The position numbers and the translations under genes are program-made. This document shows, piece after piece, positions 7,906 to 18,435 of a DNA stretch of 64,000 nt. A model generated the notes under the pieces. That model was not told where the DNA came from, did not search any database, and saw nothing but the letters and a program-made list of their open reading frames with translations. The first letter of the stretch is position 1, and every line of letters begins with the position of its first letter. The DNA is from an uncultured Candidatus Binatia bacterium (lineage in GTDB: Bacteria; Desulfobacterota; Binatia; UBA9968; CAXXLF01). Location: assembly GCA_965218425.1 (NCBI GenBank), contig OZ244621.1, positions 2,848,001 to 2,912,000 on the forward strand. Direction: 5' to 3'.

Positions 7906-8040
7906 TCCTGAACCGACCCCGGTTTTACGCCATAGTCGATCGGTTGACCAGGTCACGCTCAAAGAGGGCAAGGCGGCCATCCTGTGGTTCGAACAGGTGC
8001 TCGCCCGCAAAATGAACATCATCGACAAAGAAGAGACCGC

Positions 8041-11000
8041 ATGAGCCAGAAATACGAGAAGCTGAAAACCCTGCTGAAGGAACTGTTCCAGCTCGACCAG
8101 CCCGACTTGGACTTCGGCCTCTACCGCATCATGCACGCTAAGGGGGCCGAAGTATCGCAGTTCTTGGACAAGGACCTGCTGCCGCAGGTGCTGACGGCGT
8201 TCGGCCAATACAAGAGCGCCGACAAGGCGGAGCTCGAAAAGGAGCTGTCGAAGGTGGTCGCGGGCATCGAGGCCGCAGGAATGAACCCCGACGACTCGCC
8301 CAAGGTCAAGGACCTGCGTTCCCAGATCAAGAGCGACACCGTGGACATCGGCGCGCTGGAGAGCGAGACCTACGATCATCTCTATAGCTTCTTCCGCCGC
8401 TACTACTCGGAAGGCGACTTCCTCGCCAAGCGCGTGTACAAACCTGGAGTCTATGCGATCCCCTACGAGGGTGAGGAGGTCGCGCTCCATTGGGCCAACA
8501 AGGATCAGTACTACATCAAGACCAGCGAGTACCTGCGCGACTACGTTTTCCGACTGAGGCCGAACGATGAGAAGAAGCCGATGCGTGTGCACTTCCGCTT
8601 GGCGGACGTCGTCGAGGGCGAGCACGACAATATAAAGGCTGCTGAGGGTAAGGACCGCATGTTCATCCTGGCCGCGCCGGGAGAATCAGGCCATGACTTC
8701 ATAGTCGTGGAAGACGGCGACCAGGGCGAGGAGATCATCATCCGATTCGAGTACCGGCCGGCCACACTCACCGATTGGCCGGAGGCCGGACGCGACGGAA
8801 AGAAGAAGCCCCCGGCCCAGAAGGACCTGAGCGCGCTTACCGCGAATCGCCTGCTGGCCGTGACCGACGCCGCATTGGCGCCATGGATCGTGGAACTGGG
8901 CAAGCTGCACGTCACAGCGGGCGGCGAGCAGGCCGACTATACGCGGCTGGAGGCGCACCTCAAGCGCTACACCGCTCGCAACACCTTCGACTATTTTATT
9001 CACAAGGACCTCGGGGCTTTCCTCCGCCAGGAGCTGGACTTCTACATCAAGAACGAAGTCATGCACCTGGACGACGTGGAGAATGAGTCCGTGCCGCGCG
9101 TCGAGCAGTACCTCTCCAAGATCAAAGTCATCCGCAAGATCGGGGGCAAGATCATCGACTTCCTTGCGCAGCTCGAAGACTTCCAAAAGAAGCTGTGGCT
9201 GAAGAAGAAGTTCGTGGTCGAGACACAGTACTGCATAGCGGTCGGGAGTATCCCCGAGGCGTTCTACGCCGAGATCGCTACGAACCAAGCCCAACGCGAA
9301 GAGTGGATGAAACTGTATGCGATTGACGAGATCCAGGGCGACCTGACCACGCCTGGCTACAGCAAGGAGCTCAAGCCCGAGTTTCTGAAAGCGTACCCAA
9401 CACTGGTCGTGGACACAAGACATTTCGATGTAGGCTTCACCGCACGGCTACTTGAAGCCTTTGGCGAAGTGGACGAGAAGACTGACAGCGTGTTGTTCCA
9501 CAGCGAGAACTTTCAGGCGCTAAGCCTAATGCAGGCACGCTATCGCGGCTACGTGGAGTGCATTCACATCGACCCTCAATACAATACACAAACCAGTGGT
9601 TTCTTGTATCGGAACACATATCAGCACTCTAGCTGGCTTGCAATGATGGCGGAACGGCTTGAAGCGGCAAAGAGCCTTATAACTGACGGTGGGACATTGC
9701 TTTGTCACATCGACGAGAACGAATACGAGCGCTTGTACGTCATGTGCGATGAACTGCTACTACCGAATGCGGGAACGGTCGTGTGGGACAAGCGAAATCC
9801 GATGCTCGGGCGAAGGGGGGTAGCGACCCAGCATGAGTATGTGCTGTGGCGCACTCAAGCTGCTGGTCCGCTTTATCTACGTAGTGCTAATCAACGTCTT
9901 ATCTTACAGAATGCTACGCGAATAGTCGCAGAATGCGGTGGTGTGACGGAGAGAGCAAGGAAAGCCTTCTCAAAGTGGGTGGCGGACTGTCCTGGTCTGT
10001 CTGGAGGAGAACGTGCAAATCGCTATCTTGTCGATGACGGTCGTGTCTTTCAAAGTGTTAGCATGTCCGCCCCAGAGAAGAGAACCGACGCGAAGTTCTT
10101 TGAGCCACTAATGCACCCTAAGACAGGAAAGCCGTGTCCTGTGCCGTTGTATGGTTGGTCTCGTGCCCCTGATACTCTCATAAAGCTGCTCGCAAAGAAC
10201 GAGATTCTCTTCGGTGAAGACGAGTCGGTGCAGCCTAGACTAAAGGTATTTCTAAGAGAGGATTCTCAACGACAAGTGCCGTCAGTTATCCAAGATTCTG
10301 GGCGTGGCAAAGCGGACATGGATAAGCTAGGTCTGAAGTTCCCTTATTGCCACCCACTATCGCTCTACATCAAATTGGTCGGTGCAGCCGCGCCGAGTAG
10401 CGCTGGGGTCGTTTTGGACTTCTTCGCTGGTTCTGGTACAAACGGTCACGCAGTAATCGAACTAAACCGCGATGAAGGCACTCGCAGAGGGGTGGTTCTT
10501 GTCGAGGTTGGTGAGCAGTTCGACAGCGTGTTAATCCCTCGTATCAAGAAAGCTACGTACAGCCCGGAGTGGAAAGACGGCAAGCCCAAGCGCCTTACGA
10601 CACCGGAGGAAGCCGAGCGCAGCCCACGCATCGTGAAGGTCGTCCGTCTCGAATCCTACGAGGACGCGCTCAACAACCTGGAGACCCGCCGAACCGACAA
10701 ACAGCAGCTTCTGCTCGACGACCCCGAGGCGTAAGGCGCGGACGGTCTCAGGGAGCAAGTACACCTCCGCTACATGCTCGATGTCGAGACGCGCGGCAGC
10801 CAGTCGCTGCTCAACGTTCAGGCCTTCGCCGACCCCACGGCCTATAAGCTCAAGGTCAAGCGGCCCGGTTCGGATGAGAGCCGCGAGGTCGACGTTGATC
10901 TGCTGGAGACCTTCAACTGGCTGATCGGCCTCACGGTCCAGCACATCGCTGCGCCCCAGACTTTCAGCGCCGCGTTCAAGCGTGACAGAGAGAAGCGCCT

Positions 11001-11312
11001 GCGGATGAAGGGCCGCCTTAAGCAGATAACAAACGGCCCATACTGGTTCCGTACCGTCACCGGTGCCACGCCCGACGGGCGCAGGACGCTCGTTATCTGG
11101 CGCAAGCTCATCGGCGAGCCGGAGCAGGACAACCTGGTGCTCGACGAGTGGTTCACCAGGCAGGGCTACGCGGCCAAGGATAGTGGGTTCGACCTCATCT
11201 ACGTCAACGGCGGCAACAACCTCGAGAACCTGAAGACCCCCGACGACCTGTGGAAGGTGCGGCTCATCGAGGAAGACTTCCATCGCCTGATGTTCGAGAT
11301 GGAGGGAGAGTG

Positions 11313-11313
<1 letters not shown>
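8041..11313 (+). pseudogene. mod: Type III restriction-modification methyltransferase (Mod), interrupted by in-frame TAA at 10732-10734
   Basis: N-terminal [10 protein letters not shown] and [13 protein letters not shown], motif IV variant HIDPQYNT, motif I DFFAGSGT, and [12 protein letters not shown]. The reading frame continues unshifted past the TAA into ORF 10774-11313 ([13 protein letters not shown]). Confidence 0.85.
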
Positions 11314-14543
<3,230 letters not shown>

Positions 14544-14592
14544 TCGACCAACTTTGCATGGAGCACTGGCCGGGGGTAGGTAACATAAAAAA

Positions 14593-14717
14593 GGGGTCAA
14601 GCTCCAGTAGGATGGTGGTTGTAACGGCCATCGAACCTGAAAGGAGAAGACCCCATGCTTTACGTCGGGATAGACTGTCACAAACGATACGCCCAGATAA
14701 ATGCCATCGACGAGAAA
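14593..14717 (+). mobile_element. IS110-family element 5' remnant: structured leader plus the first ~21 transposase codons
   Basis: AAGGAG RBS, then ATG 14655 encoding MLYVGIDCHKRYAQINAIDEK, a typical IS110 DEDD N-terminus. Truncated where repeat C begins. Confidence 0.7.
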
Positions 14718-14800
14718 TGGATAGGACGTTCCAAAAGTGAATTGGCACGATACAAGCTGGAATCCGAAAGGGAAGGGAACCTAAAATAGCAGGAAAGCGT
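14715..14800 (+). repeat. 86-bp repeat C, copy 2 (upstream of the Mrr-like gene)
   Basis: Direct copy of 7820-7905, followed by TGACCCC at 14804-14810. Confidence 0.9.
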
Positions 14801-14830
14801 GAATGACCCCGACTTCAGGAGGAAACAAAG

Positions 14831-15745
14831 ATGGCGACGATTTGGCGCTTGAACATCAAACCCGATGCAGAGGAGAACATCGACCCAAGAAAGTTTTGTA
14901 TCGATAAAAACATCCTTGGCATCGGCTGGCCAGTAGACTTGGATGAACCTCTGGACTGGAATGATTATTACGTCGCGGGTAAGAAGAAATACCGCGAGGA
15001 AAAGGGTGACAAGGGATGGTGGCCTGCCGTCAACGCGATTCGAAATAGGATGGAGATCAATGACCTTTGCTGGACCCGCGACTGGGACAGCAACTACTAC
15101 ATTGGCCAGATCACGGGCAATTGGAAATACCGTTCTACACGCAATTACCGTGATGCAGACATCGTGAACGTAAGGCCCTGTAGGTGGTTTCAAACCGGCG
15201 GCGTAGATTCGGTCCCAGGAAAGATACTGAATAGCTTCATCCGGAGTAGAACAGTTCAAAAAGTGCACGACGAAACATCGAGTTTCTACTCCAAACTCAA
15301 ATACAACCAACTGAGCAAGGAAGCCGCCTACGACTTGTCTAGTGATAAAAATCCAGACTTGTTTGCCCTGATTTCCTCAGAGGATTGTGAAGACATCGTT
15401 GGGATTTACTTGCAGGAGAAACAGGGCTATAGGCTCATTCCGAGTTCGTGCAGGCACGATACGGTCAAGACCGAATTCGTCCTGAAAACGACGGCAGGGA
15501 AGCAAGCATATGTGCAGGTAAAGCAAGGGGTAGCCATTAACACGGATAAATACAAATACGACTCTAGCAATCCGTGCGAGTGGTTCCTGTTTACGACCAA
15601 CGGGCAATATACCGGTAGAGGAGACAGCCATGTGCATTGTCTCGATCCCGATGATATGCGCGACTTCGCGTTGGCTAATCGAGAACTTATGCCGGACCGT
15701 GTTCGGACATTCATTGACTTCTGCTTTCCAGGTCGGCACTCATAA
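14831..15745 (+). CDS. putative Mrr-like / PD-(D/E)xK restriction endonuclease-fold protein
   Basis: AGGAGG RBS; lower GC than flanks. N-terminal IGW...MEINDL...IGQITG domain; C-terminal CEDIVGIYLQ...EFVL...YVQVKQG (QxK type). Lies next to res. Confidence 0.55.
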   Translation: MATIWRLNIKPDAEENIDPRKFCIDKNILGIGWPVDLDEPLDWNDYYVAGKKKYREEKGDKGWWPAVNAIRNRMEINDLCWTRDWDSNYYIGQITGNWKYRSTRNYRDADIVNVRPCRWFQTGGVDSVPGKILNSFIRSRTVQKVHDETSSFYSKLKYNQLSKEAAYDLSSDKNPDLFALISSEDCEDIVGIYLQEKQGYRLIPSSCRHDTVKTEFVLKTTAGKQAYVQVKQGVAINTDKYKYDSSNPCEWFLFTTNGQYTGRGDSHVHCLDPDDMRDFALANRELMPDRVRTFIDFCFPGRHS

Positions 15746-15827
15746 TTGTGACCGGTTTCCCCATCCCTTCCATCGCCTCGACGAGGTATTCGTCGGCGTA
15801 GCGGATCAGAAACAATTGAGAATGGCC

Positions 15828-15906
15828 TGGAAAATCCGAGAAATTCCGAGGCGAAACGACCCGGAAACCGCCCATGCAAAGCCCCTGAAAGGGGCGTGCA
15901 TCGACC
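15828..15906 (-). repeat. partial, inverted, more diverged copy of block A
   Basis: Reverse complement contains CCCTTTCAGG...CGGTTTCCGG.TCGTTTC...TCGGATTTTCCA, colinear with the 3' half of block A. Confidence 0.5.
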
Positions 15907-16041
15907 ACGCTCGATGCCGCCGGTGCCCGAGCGGCTTACCGACCAGGGGCAGGTTTTCGCTGGACATGAAGGCATGACTGGCTAGCGTGTGACGGAGGTC
16001 ATGGAGCCGGAGCTTATCCGCCCAGGCGTCCGCATCGTTCT

Positions 16042-16362
16042 TCCGTTCTGCTCAAATGCTCGCGTGCGGCACGCGACCTGGAGGAGATCTACGATTACGT
16101 TGATCGGCACGATTCGCCGGGTCGTACCGATTATGTGCCGGAGCGGATCGAAAAAGCGTTCAGCGGCCTTTCCGAACATCCCCAGCGCGGAAGTTACCCG
16201 AAGGAATTGCTGGATATTGGAATTCGGGAGTACCGTGAAGTTTTCTTCAAGCCCTACCGGATCATCTACCGGGTAACCGAGAACAATGTCTACGTGCTGG
16301 TGATTGCCGATGGGCGGCGTGACATGCGGGCTTTGCTGGAGCGACGCTTGCTGCAGGCGTAA
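16042..16362 (+). pseudogene. RelE/ParE-family toxin, 5'-degenerate (no start codon at the expected position, no upstream antitoxin)
   Basis: In-frame SVLL...AARDLEEIYDYVDRHDSPGRTDYV.ERIEKAFSGLSEHPQRG...YRIIYRV...ADGRRDM. Confidence 0.75.
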
Positions 16363-16408
16363 GGCCCGCATTGTGCCGCGGCTCCTCCAGTATCCGGCAC
16401 TGGGCGGC

Positions 16409-16568
16409 ATAGCACCGGCCTTAACGGGCCGGTGAGGATTGAAACACTGTCTACGCGCCGCCTTTATCATCGCACGCTGGTTTTCCCCACACGCGTGGTG
16501 ATGGTCCGTTGTTTCAAGCTGTTTTATGGTGATTGCACGGTGTTCCCCACGCGCGTGGGAATGAACCG
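16409..16568 (+). CRISPR. orphan chimeric mini-array: one 37-bp repeat (16409-16445) and two 29-bp type I-E-like repeats (16480-16508, 16540-16568)
   Basis: ATAGCACCGGCCTTAACGGGCCGGTGAGGATTGAAAC, 34-nt spacer, GTTTTCCCCACACGCGTGGTGATGGTCCG, 31-nt spacer, GTGTTCCCCACGCGCGTGGGAATGAACCG. Confidence 0.75.
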
Positions 16569-16726
16569 CACATGGCATCCGTCGGAAATGAGATTTTGCC
16601 GGGCTGCGTTGGATCGATCGCCGGTACAGCGCCGGGGTTCGGCGGATCTGATCCGATGAGCACACCGGCCGGACGCAGCCTCACCGCGTTGCTGACCCAC
16701 GTCAGCGAAAACATCGACTTAGAGGC

Positions 16727-16771
16727 GGCAGGGCTCAGCTTTCTGATGATGTCGTTCACGTTCGCGGGCAT
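16727..16771 (-). pseudogene. possible N-terminal stub of an XRE/HigA-type antitoxin
   Basis: AAGGAAG RBS-like sequence then MPANVNDIIRKLSPA, resembling N-termini of XRE antitoxins. Only ~15 codons. Confidence 0.35.
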
Positions 16772-17010
16772 GATTACTTCCTTAAATCCACCCGAAGGCT
16801 CCTTTTTTATTTTTGAAACTACTCCCATTCAATGGTGGCGGGAGACTTGGAGGAAATATCATAATACGCTATCGCAACCTCCTTACCCTGAAAATTTTTG
16901 TCCTTCCCTTCCGCCTTGGGCTCAAGTTGACACTATCTCGCGTTACCATTACGCTCTGTTGCGAAGAACTCGATCCTTGATCTTGCATCTTTTTCCCCTG
17001 GAGCGCCCGG

Positions 17011-18435
17011 ATGGAAATCCGTACCGATACCGACGCGAAACAAGAGATGGCCGTACTGACCTTCGCCATACGGTTGATCCTTGCGGAGCTGGATCACCGC
17101 GTCTTGGTGGAGCGGGGTTTGGAAACCTTCTCCGACTTCGGCCGGTGCGAGAGGGTCGCAATCTTTCTGTTGGACCCCTCGGGCGAGACGTTACGGGTTG
17201 AAGGATGCACGGGCGCCAGCCTCGGAGCCGATCCGATTCAATTCCATGTGGCTGGAACTCCGTTTGAAGAGGTGATGAGCTCCAAGCAACCGGGAAAATT
17301 CCGGCTGAACCTGTTGGAGAAGGTCCCTTATCCCACTTACGATTCCGGCGAGGCGGAACGGCAGTGTCTCTGTGTGCCGTTGGTGGAGGCCAACAACAGG
17401 TCCCTGGGCGTGGTTACCTTCGACCAACCGGCCGGGGAATCTCTGGATTCCACCGCTATGCAGTGTGTCCTGATCCTTCAGTCGGTGTTAGCCGTAAGTC
17501 TTGAAAATGCCCGCGTGTTGGGGCGGCTGCGGGAGACTCACGCGGAGCTGGAAACCCTGTATCAGGCCAAGACGAAGATGATCGATCATCTTTCCCATGA
17601 GCTGAAAACACCCCTGGCCGTAATCTCGGCCTCTTCCAAGATATTGTCCAAGGATTCCGTGCGGCGCGATGAGAGACGGTTTTCGTCCGCTCTTCATCGC
17701 ATGGGCCGGAGCATTAAGCGGCTCCTGGAGCTGGAAGAAGAAGCGGGCGATATTGCGAAACAAGGAGGATTTGCAGCCAAAGGCTTATTGGAAGGAATGA
17801 TCCGGCAGTGCCGGGATCTTCTGGAGACCATGGTGGATCAAGGCGATCCGCCGGCTCCGCTGCTGGCCAAGCTCGCTTCGCGTATCGAAGAATGCTATTT
17901 GCCGCTGGTAGATGAACGGAGAGACAGTATCTCGTTGGTTGATTGGGTTCCCGACGTGCTTGCCGGTATTGAGCCTCTCCACCGGCATCGCGATGTGCGC
18001 TTGGAATTGGATTTGCGCCCAGGCCCGGCGGTACGGATGCCGGAGGGGCCGCTGCGCAAAGTGTTCAGCGGACTTATCCGCAACGCCGTTGAAAACACGC
18101 CGGATGGGGGTACCATCAGGGTGGAGGTCTCCCTGGAGGGTGATTCTGTTGCGCTTCGCGTGCGCGACTTTGGTTTAGGCATTAAAAAGGAGGATATGAG
18201 GCAGTTGTTTCACGGTTTTGTCCACACGGGCGACACCGAAGACTATTCATCCGGCAGGCCTTTTGATTTTAAGGCCGGGGGGAAAGGCCTGGACCTCCTG
18301 CGGAGCAAGCTTTTTGCTGAAAGATATGGATTTGATATCCAGGTTGAAAGCAAGTACAGTACCGGCAGCCTCTTCTCCCTGGTGTTCCCGCCCTCCATGC
18401 TCGCTCCGGAGGGGGAAGAACCGCGTGGACGGTAG
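17011..18435 (+). CDS. GAF-domain sensor histidine kinase
   Basis: GAF (LCVPL...LGVVTFD...LAVSLENAR), H-box HLSHELKTPL, N-box LIRNAVEN, G1 DFGLGI, atypical G2 GGKGLDL. Confidence 0.88.
   Translation: MEIRTDTDAKQEMAVLTFAIRLILAELDHRVLVERGLETFSDFGRCERVAIFLLDPSGETLRVEGCTGASLGADPIQFHVAGTPFEEVMSSKQPGKFRLNLLEKVPYPTYDSGEAERQCLCVPLVEANNRSLGVVTFDQPAGESLDSTAMQCVLILQSVLAVSLENARVLGRLRETHAELETLYQAKTKMIDHLSHELKTPLAVISASSKILSKDSVRRDERRFSSALHRMGRSIKRLLELEEEAGDIAKQGGFAAKGLLEGMIRQCRDLLETMVDQGDPPAPLLAKLASRIEECYLPLVDERRDSISLVDWVPDVLAGIEPLHRHRDVRLELDLRPGPAVRMPEGPLRKVFSGLIRNAVENTPDGGTIRVEVSLEGDSVALRVRDFGLGIKKEDMRQLFHGFVHTGDTEDYSSGRPFDFKAGGKGLDLLRSKLFAERYGFDIQVESKYSTGSLFSLVFPPSMLAPEGEEPRGR

Follow-up and report, generated by a model that had tools for sequence, protein, structure and literature searches.

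A Head-to-Tail Mini-Array of Type I-C and Type I-E Repeats as Probable Layered Debris of Successive CRISPR Systems in a Binatia Genome

Orphan and degraded CRISPR arrays are shaped by repeat-mediated deletion (PMC4524480), and one degraded array in Marinomonas occupies a place that once held a type III-B system (PMC5576922), according to the accessible parts of these reports. Regulatory mini-arrays, in the available portion of their description, are conserved, are found within cas loci or close to them, and recognize PAM-flanked targets in promoters (10.1101/2023.03.03.530964), while the accessible account of RNA anti-CRISPRs (Racrs) presents solitary repeats carried by mobile elements and mostly matching a system of the host (PMC10651486). 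Repeat variants and recombination between arrays, but not joints across subtypes, are treated in the available sections of two other studies (10.1101/2022.05.19.492656; PMC12282179). Among the main texts searched, mostly open-access, we found no survey of arrays with cross-subtype junctions.

Here we analyze a locus that resembles each of these systems only in part. It lies in a stretch of 64,000 nucleotides, hereafter the window, taken from the genome of an uncultured Candidatus Binatia bacterium (G000), which consists of a single contig (C1) of 4.46 Mb and is 97% complete. A first-pass annotation of the window had described an orphan array formed by a 37-nt hairpin repeat (R1) and two 29-nt repeats of I-E type (R2 and R3), beginning 46 nt past the stop codon of a ParE toxin gene; the lengths and positions of its parts (37-34-29-31-29 nt at 16409-16568) and its distance from that stop, at 16362, are exact (table 1). 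Like the orphan and degraded arrays, as the accessible texts present them (PMC4524480; PMC5576922), the locus is cas-less, short, degenerate, and placed at a site of gain and loss; whereas those arrays hold one repeat family each, here two subtypes and probably three families stand head-to-tail in 160 nt. With the regulatory mini-arrays, crlRNAs, and CreTA modules, as far as the available portion of the source describes them (10.1101/2023.03.03.530964), it shares the number of two to three repeats, the degenerate distal repeats and a toxin-family gene nearby. In contrast to them it is neither in nor beside a cas locus, is not conserved in the relatives searched and has no PAM-flanked promoter target, its toxin gene is broken, and one of the two machineries is missing. 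Racrs and other solitary repeat units, in the accessible part of their description (PMC10651486), likewise consist of a cas-less repeat in a variable region, and R1 does fit a subtype of the host; however, the present locus is not solitary, has no recognized prophage context and no detected promoter, and its cognate systems no longer function or are missing. We consider it quite probable that the locus is layered debris, left by CRISPR systems that succeeded each other at a single site and have since eroded.

Table 1. Coordinates of the locus, its neighborhood and related features (window positions unless a genome or locus handle is given).
Feature	Position	Strand	Remarks
Dispersed non-coding repeat, transposase-like start	14567-14817		up to 50 overlapping matches elsewhere in genome
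Second dispersed repeat; abuts and truncates parE	15778-16071		up to 12 matches elsewhere in genome
parE-family toxin pseudogene, 5'-truncated	16069-16362	+	no antitoxin in front
R1, type I-C CRISPR repeat, nearly intact	16409-16445	+	37 nt
Joint 1 / spacer 1	16446-16479	+	34 nt, size of a spacer
R2, type I-E repeat, GTTTT...GGTCC sub-family	16480-16508	+	29 nt, stem broken by one change
Joint 2 / spacer 2	16509-16539	+	31 nt
R3, type I-E repeat, GTGTT...GAACC sub-family	16540-16568	+	29 nt, one stem change
Old spacer stub	16569-16599	+	31 nt, common to orphan I-E repeat at G000:1125 kb
IS1182-family element end, first 7 bases	16600-16606	+	assigned via sister orphan locus
Small-gene 5' end stub	16728-16783	-	74% over 57 nt to G000:2037107-2037163
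cas2 matches of spacer 2	G000:C1:224889 and 2766985	-	12/13
I-C repeats before genes	L157, L158, L165, L166, L177, L179 (~1500)
I-C repeats before genes	L025, L030, L031, L035, L042, L163, L169, L178; G000:C1:2315652-2315691

Could the juxtaposition of unlike repeats be an artefact of assembly? The genome is derived from a metagenome and such repeats are common to members of the community, which would favor an artefact joining two repeats; yet contigs from three of four runs, belonging to three studies, cover 16416/16417-17200 or beyond and read through all joints with zero differences, even if one run among these comparisons may be the source sample of the genome itself. The contig of the fourth run covers 16428-16649, and one contig joins parE to R1 (16244-16438). 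Misassembly, named beforehand as a finding that would overturn the first-pass reading, thus has next to no probability on the evidence of contigs.

Judged by sequence likeness, R1 is a type I-C repeat, because its family forms the 11-repeat array that follows a complete I-C operon in genome G187; it differs by one mismatch from each of the two repeats at the decayed I-C locus of G000. Its hairpin is far stronger than those of shuffled sequences (z -4.77; 0/200 shuffles), while the hairpin of R3 is weak by the same comparison (z -1.65) and the fold of R2 is no better than shuffles (z 0.05); Rfam gave no match in the 64-kb window. Outside the loop, R2 shows one difference from a 20-copy repeat of genome G416 and four from an R3-type orphan at 1125 kb of G000, R3 shows one difference from that orphan and four from the G416 repeat, and the two differ from each other at five positions, whereas only 4 of 136 pairs of neighbor repeats in real I-E arrays have at least five differences. 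R2 and R3 probably derive, by this comparison, from different I-E arrays of two sub-families. Given this difference and a period of 60 between R2 and R3, against 61 in 17 of the 20 I-E pairs measured, joint 2 may also be a recombination joint, and its length, one base under that of usual I-E spacers, would possibly mark a second scar. All three repeats therefore belong to families known from I-C or I-E arrays, as their comparison shows, but the locus differs from such arrays in that no leader is recognized (the leader motif of related arrays is not seen by eye, in keeping with the first-pass description), the I-E stems are broken, and no run of like repeats at the period of the subtype is present, there being a single I-C repeat and two unlike I-E repeats.

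Additional orphan repeats occur in the same genome: an I-C repeat at 2315652, the I-E repeat at 1125350-1125378 mentioned above, and a third I-E orphan of 28 nt at 2847473-2847500 (-), about 500 bases before the window. R3 and its flank are duplicated at the 1125-kb orphan (67 nt, 88% identity, with 38 downstream bases in common); both this duplication and the loss of the parE start had been overlooked in the first-pass annotation. The flank of the sister orphan corresponds to bases 1-65 of a 1.6-kb element that has five near-identical copies, the transposase of which is of the IS1182 family, and an IS1182-like end also follows the third orphan, so that element ends adjoin all three I-E orphan loci, amounting to two independent events. 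I-E remnants that point outward, accompanied by IS1182-like ends, lie at both edges of a 17.5-kb island (2847473-2847500 (-) and window 16540-16606).

The absence of cas genes from the window stands: genome-wide tblastn with 15 Cas proteins found matches only at 208-226 kb and 2767-2773 kb. None of eight I-E proteins was matched by tblastn, and Cas7e (TIGR01869) was not detected in G000 while being detected in the positive controls G145 and G245; these searches were added to Pfam searches for I-E genes that had weak controls (1 of 14 control genomes positive). Looking elsewhere in the genome for loci with these repeats, as had been proposed, hence yielded a decayed I-C locus but no I-E locus. 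The former, at 208290-212654, contains part of cas3 next to a piece of IS3, cas5c, cas8c, and cas7c at full length, and a truncated cas4 fused to a two-repeat array and followed by an HNH gene, whereas cas1c and cas2 were not found there. Wrecked as it is, this locus could possibly still provide a Cas3-less Cascade with one spacer. Two further systems of the genome have long arrays with a repeat unrelated to R1-R3 and a fused cas4-cas1 gene; we take them to be I-B systems of Myxococcus type. Cognate genes for acquisition and interference are consequently lacking, I-E having none and I-C being without cas1, cas2, and a whole cas3.

This gene content bears upon the proposal that the locus could be a Racr-like decoy, a solitary repeat unit on a mobile island that would soak up I-C and I-E subunits. 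R1 does match a subtype present in the host, the site is a variable island, and the accessible part of PMC10651486 includes an I-C Racr situated 11 nt behind a gene. On the other side, the host I-C system is already dead, I-E is absent and the two intact systems use an unrelated repeat; no phage or acr genes were recognized when 23 ORFs, up to 35.6 kb, were scanned with Pfam, and both R1 and the hybrid pattern were absent from the viral contigs scanned. The pipeline of the Racr study, as its accessible text explains, discards repeats associated with other repeats (PMC10651486), and the present locus has three repeats at spacer distances instead of a single unlinked one. We regard a decoy as highly improbable.

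The combination of I-C and I-E repeats is not restricted to this genome. A GTDB scan for an I-C end followed by an I-E start 25-45 nt on returned 26 loci, of which 14 were judged genuine by eye and 12 were dropped because they lacked an I-C hairpin or were REP-like or coding; a metagenome scan with a 10-40 nt spacing returned 45 loci with 17 distinct genuine joints, again by eye. Rows dropped from the latter were duplicates, chance matches or REP-like sequences (L076, L081, L083, L096, L104, L105), arrays with a repeat that by itself satisfies both parts of the pattern (L089, L092, L111), and I-E spacers containing an I-C end (L082, L085, L094, L106, L116, and duplicates). With one joint common to both scans, 30 distinct I-C-to-I-E junctions were obtained for the one order, one orientation, and 10-45 nt range covered, the hybrids being chosen by eye. 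Two other searches gave nothing usable, an 11-base pattern run over 61 relatives performing at chance level and a relaxed I-E regular expression being too loose for the genome. As to the dropped rows, L089, L092, and L111 are long arrays of a 29-nt repeat that combines an I-E-like hairpin with an I-C/I-B-like tail, and at L082 (~1200) a spacer of a long I-E array includes the end of an I-C repeat over 16 nt, which suggests that one system sampled the array of the other.

The commonest layout among the genuine joints is an I-C array closing with one I-E repeat: I-E contributes a lone repeat in 23 of 31 rows (maximum 6; two of the 31 rows stop at most 45 bases from the locus edge), and at least 10 I-C repeats precede the joint in 13 of 31. 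I-C cas genes were found in 5 of the 31 short loci and I-E genes in none; in the five hybrid-bearing GTDB genomes tested, all drafts, Cas7e and Cas6e were absent throughout and Cas1 was present in four. Cas-less stubs with one repeat of each subtype, like the present locus, are L053, L059, and L078. Joint lengths range from 11 to 43 nt overall, and from 11 to 39 nt in the scan at 10-40 nt, where 11 of 17 are below 30 nt; they are too varied for spacers, real I-C arrays having periods of 63-75 and real I-E arrays the nearly constant period given above. The spread in the 10-40 nt scan fits either two half-spacers joined at random (KS p 0.33) or a flat distribution (p 0.85) and, because it has a spacer-sized mode, the 34-nt length of joint 1 is no sign of a real spacer. 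Joint 1 would instead mark where two arrays recombined.

Genus g29, which belongs to this class, presents a series of full and collapsed states. One site immediately ahead of a GYD-domain gene keeps a remnant made of an I-C repeat, a spacer and another I-C repeat. G145 and G245 have a complete I-E operon, with 67 or 35 repeats that run up to this remnant, and in G145 the contact is made by a degraded repeat belonging to a second I-E family; G277 has I-B-type repeats in that position; in G169, a genome without Cas7e, one I-E repeat stands on it behind a restriction system; and in G056 and G082 the remnant is alone. G169 is the mirror image of the present locus, and its fuller sisters reveal its origin. 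Of 29 loci retrieved solely for their similarity to R1 or R3, 8 have mixed joints, and mixed joints are head-to-tail in 12 of 12 cases (perhaps seven independent events) and within 1-3 nt of repeat ends in 5 of 12 (about two independent). The first-pass annotation had offered fused debris of two arrays as an alternative, and every comparative test (recurrence, joint geometry, the g29 series, and the missing genes) backs it; relatives with full arrays reduced to stubs, which it had imagined, are not seen at this locus among those searched, but analogous states are found in g29.

The same evidence could be read in a more specific way, under which the locus is still a relic but its joints were made when an incoming CRISPR-cas locus landed in the resident array, either through Cas1-Cas2 nicks at repeat ends or through recombination with a spacer holding a piece of the other array. 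The uniform orientation and the close joints just mentioned agree with this, as does the reuse of a single g29 site by I-E and I-B systems, while the L082 spacer would be precisely the substrate needed for recombination. Joints of 11-43 nt, however, fit random joining, ordinary replacement with the flanking genes as anchors would give the same co-orientation, a 10-nt I-C end in four other I-E spacers may be due to chance, and the present locus provides no direct evidence for such landing, which we deem quite unlikely.

The surroundings of the locus form an island with restriction genes and element debris; in particular, the segment 14567-16860 is debris of mobile elements and genes. The toxin neighbor noted in the first-pass annotation does belong to the parE family, but it is a start-less fragment without antitoxin rather than an intact toxin gene of the kind found in CreTA-like modules: its Pfam match (PF05016) starts at profile position 9 of 89, the first in-frame start codon lies at 16135, within the domain, and related contigs have a normal parE N-terminus before 16065. 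The stub downstream of the array, encoding 24 amino acids, has no Pfam match; the fuller copy of its gene presumably encodes a protein resembling a helix-turn-helix antitoxin. In the same-genus genome G001 the flanking core genes are about 5 kb apart with other content, compared with about 17.5 kb here. The array is kept in none of four family relatives, and 31 of 401 genomes of the class have matches, only through the repeats among the matches listed. Window positions 7984-15745 encode a type III-like methylase and a restriction helicase and, after these, a 304-aa protein with no Pfam match. Contigs reveal strains that skip 14706-15778, and the gene of the 304-aa protein therefore resembles an excisable cassette flanked by dispersed repeats.

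Two features of the presumed spacers had suggested a functional design. The motif TTTAT...AT(C/T)GCACG is indeed common to both, but the overall likeness is weak (p = 0.22, 0.31, and 0.016 by three scorings), and the complementarity of spacer 2 to the end of R1 exists over 8 nt but is equally weak evidence, its p value of 0.009 referring to a match selected post hoc. That spacer 1 is a duplicate of spacer 2 was also considered and is unsupported by the likeness scoring. The proposed comparison with viral, phage, and plasmid sequences produced nothing significant: there was no exact 20-nt match in viral contigs, no phage match overlapping a spacer, and best E-values of 0.3 and 2 in the plasmid search. 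Most real spacers find no match either. The suggested search for PAM-flanked targets in the host fared no better, the best self-matches with PAM having seeds of 9-10 nt that 29 to 40 of 40 shuffles equaled or exceeded. With TTC, which we assume to be the I-C PAM, the best seed of spacer 1 is 9 nt (equaled or exceeded by 30/40 shuffles); with AAG, the I-E PAM in the available portion of 10.1101/2023.03.03.530964, that of spacer 2 is equaled or exceeded by 29/40. A 10/12 match in parE lies within the coding region and is flanked by a repeat-like AAC. The first 13 bases of spacer 2 (16509-16521) match the coding strand of both cas2 genes of the genome; as a target this was rejected, with about 0.2 such matches expected by our estimate in the regions scanned, a mismatch in the seed and no I-E effector.

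These results weigh on the idea of a Cas-guided regulator, a crlRNA of CreA type in which Cas5c would process R1-spacer-R2 and a Cas3-less I-C Cascade would repress a promoter. Intact cas5c, cas8c, and cas7c next to a broken cas3 are what it would need, a degenerate distal repeat and a nearby toxin-family gene recall mini-arrays in the accessible part of 10.1101/2023.03.03.530964, and short targets are hard to detect according to the same text. Conversely, the seeds of both spacers are no better than shuffles, the parE match lies in the coding region, with a repeat-like flank, of a gene that is itself a start-less fragment, the I-C genes are at a distance of 1.8 Mb around the contig, no sigma-70 promoter-like site was found in 15700-17050, and the locus is unconserved in the relatives searched. 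A regulator of this kind is very unlikely. The broader first-pass proposal of a regulatory or decoy locus using two Cas machineries in trans finds no support either, as no I-E machinery was detected in the genome, and a regulatory or decoy RNA appears unsupported on sequence grounds.

How, then, might repeats of probably three families have come together in so short a space? Under the reading as layered debris, one site of the island would have been occupied in turn by an I-E system, probably by a second I-E system, and then by an I-C system, each newcomer or deletion removing the older cas genes, leader, and array front while leaving the trailer. Arrays without their own Cas1-Cas2 would have shrunk by repeat-to-repeat recombination to one repeat each, and the joints between unlike repeats would have persisted as spacer-sized scars, because that recombination cannot remove them. 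Mobile elements would later have eliminated the genes and leader of the I-C system, trimmed the distal end, and produced the second copy of R3 and its flank. Since no longer, earlier state of this locus was found in a relative, its history is borrowed from analogues; we infer on this basis the order of events and the joining reaction, and the remnant would by now be devoid of function. The cas-less, degenerate, and unconserved condition of the locus agrees with such a history, as do the analogous full and collapsed states elsewhere.

Three observations sit less comfortably with erosion. The genome retains full-length cas5c, cas8c, and cas7c together with a nearly intact R1, so that a transcript could be cut and bound in trans; samples of three studies carry an identical locus, which agrees with a single recent strain but gives no sign of continuing loss; and the joints within 1-3 nt of repeat ends exceed the expectation for random joining (5/12, about two independent). 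A bolder scheme supposes directed homing of newcomers to the repeat ends of arrays of another subtype, leaving an ordered record of trailers, the stubs of which could be recruited, R1 being cut by the Cas3-less I-C Cascade and a fixed guide closed by the foreign I-E hairpin. We hold this combination, drawn from sequence comparison, to be unlikely.

If layered debris is the correct reading, mixed-repeat mini-arrays would be a normal end state of CRISPR turnover, of which the present locus is an example, and caution would be warranted for pipelines that label cas-less repeat pairs near toxin genes as regulators or RNA anti-CRISPRs. Stacked trailers would reveal which subtypes a lineage held, and in which order, even where cas genes are gone, and the rate and direction of subtype replacement would thereby become countable from genomes. 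Directed joining, if true, would constitute a new route of integration for CRISPR loci. The single locus matters little in this respect; it is the recurring pattern that carries interest.

Two minor observations concern I-C repeats outside arrays. The spacer of the g29 remnant is nearly unchanged in six genomes (L018, L021, L027, L028, L032, L034; ~1430-1610), and as a functional mini-array this remnant would be a stronger candidate than the present locus. I-C repeats, or their 3' half alone, also lie 0-11 nt before the start codons of ordinary genes (table 1); one of these genes encodes a TPR protein and others presumably an rRNA methyltransferase-like and a dehydrogenase-like protein. Because the hairpin has decayed in six g29 genomes while the 3' 15 bases of the I-C repeat are unchanged, this pattern suggests that the repeat tail may have been retained as a ribosome-binding site.
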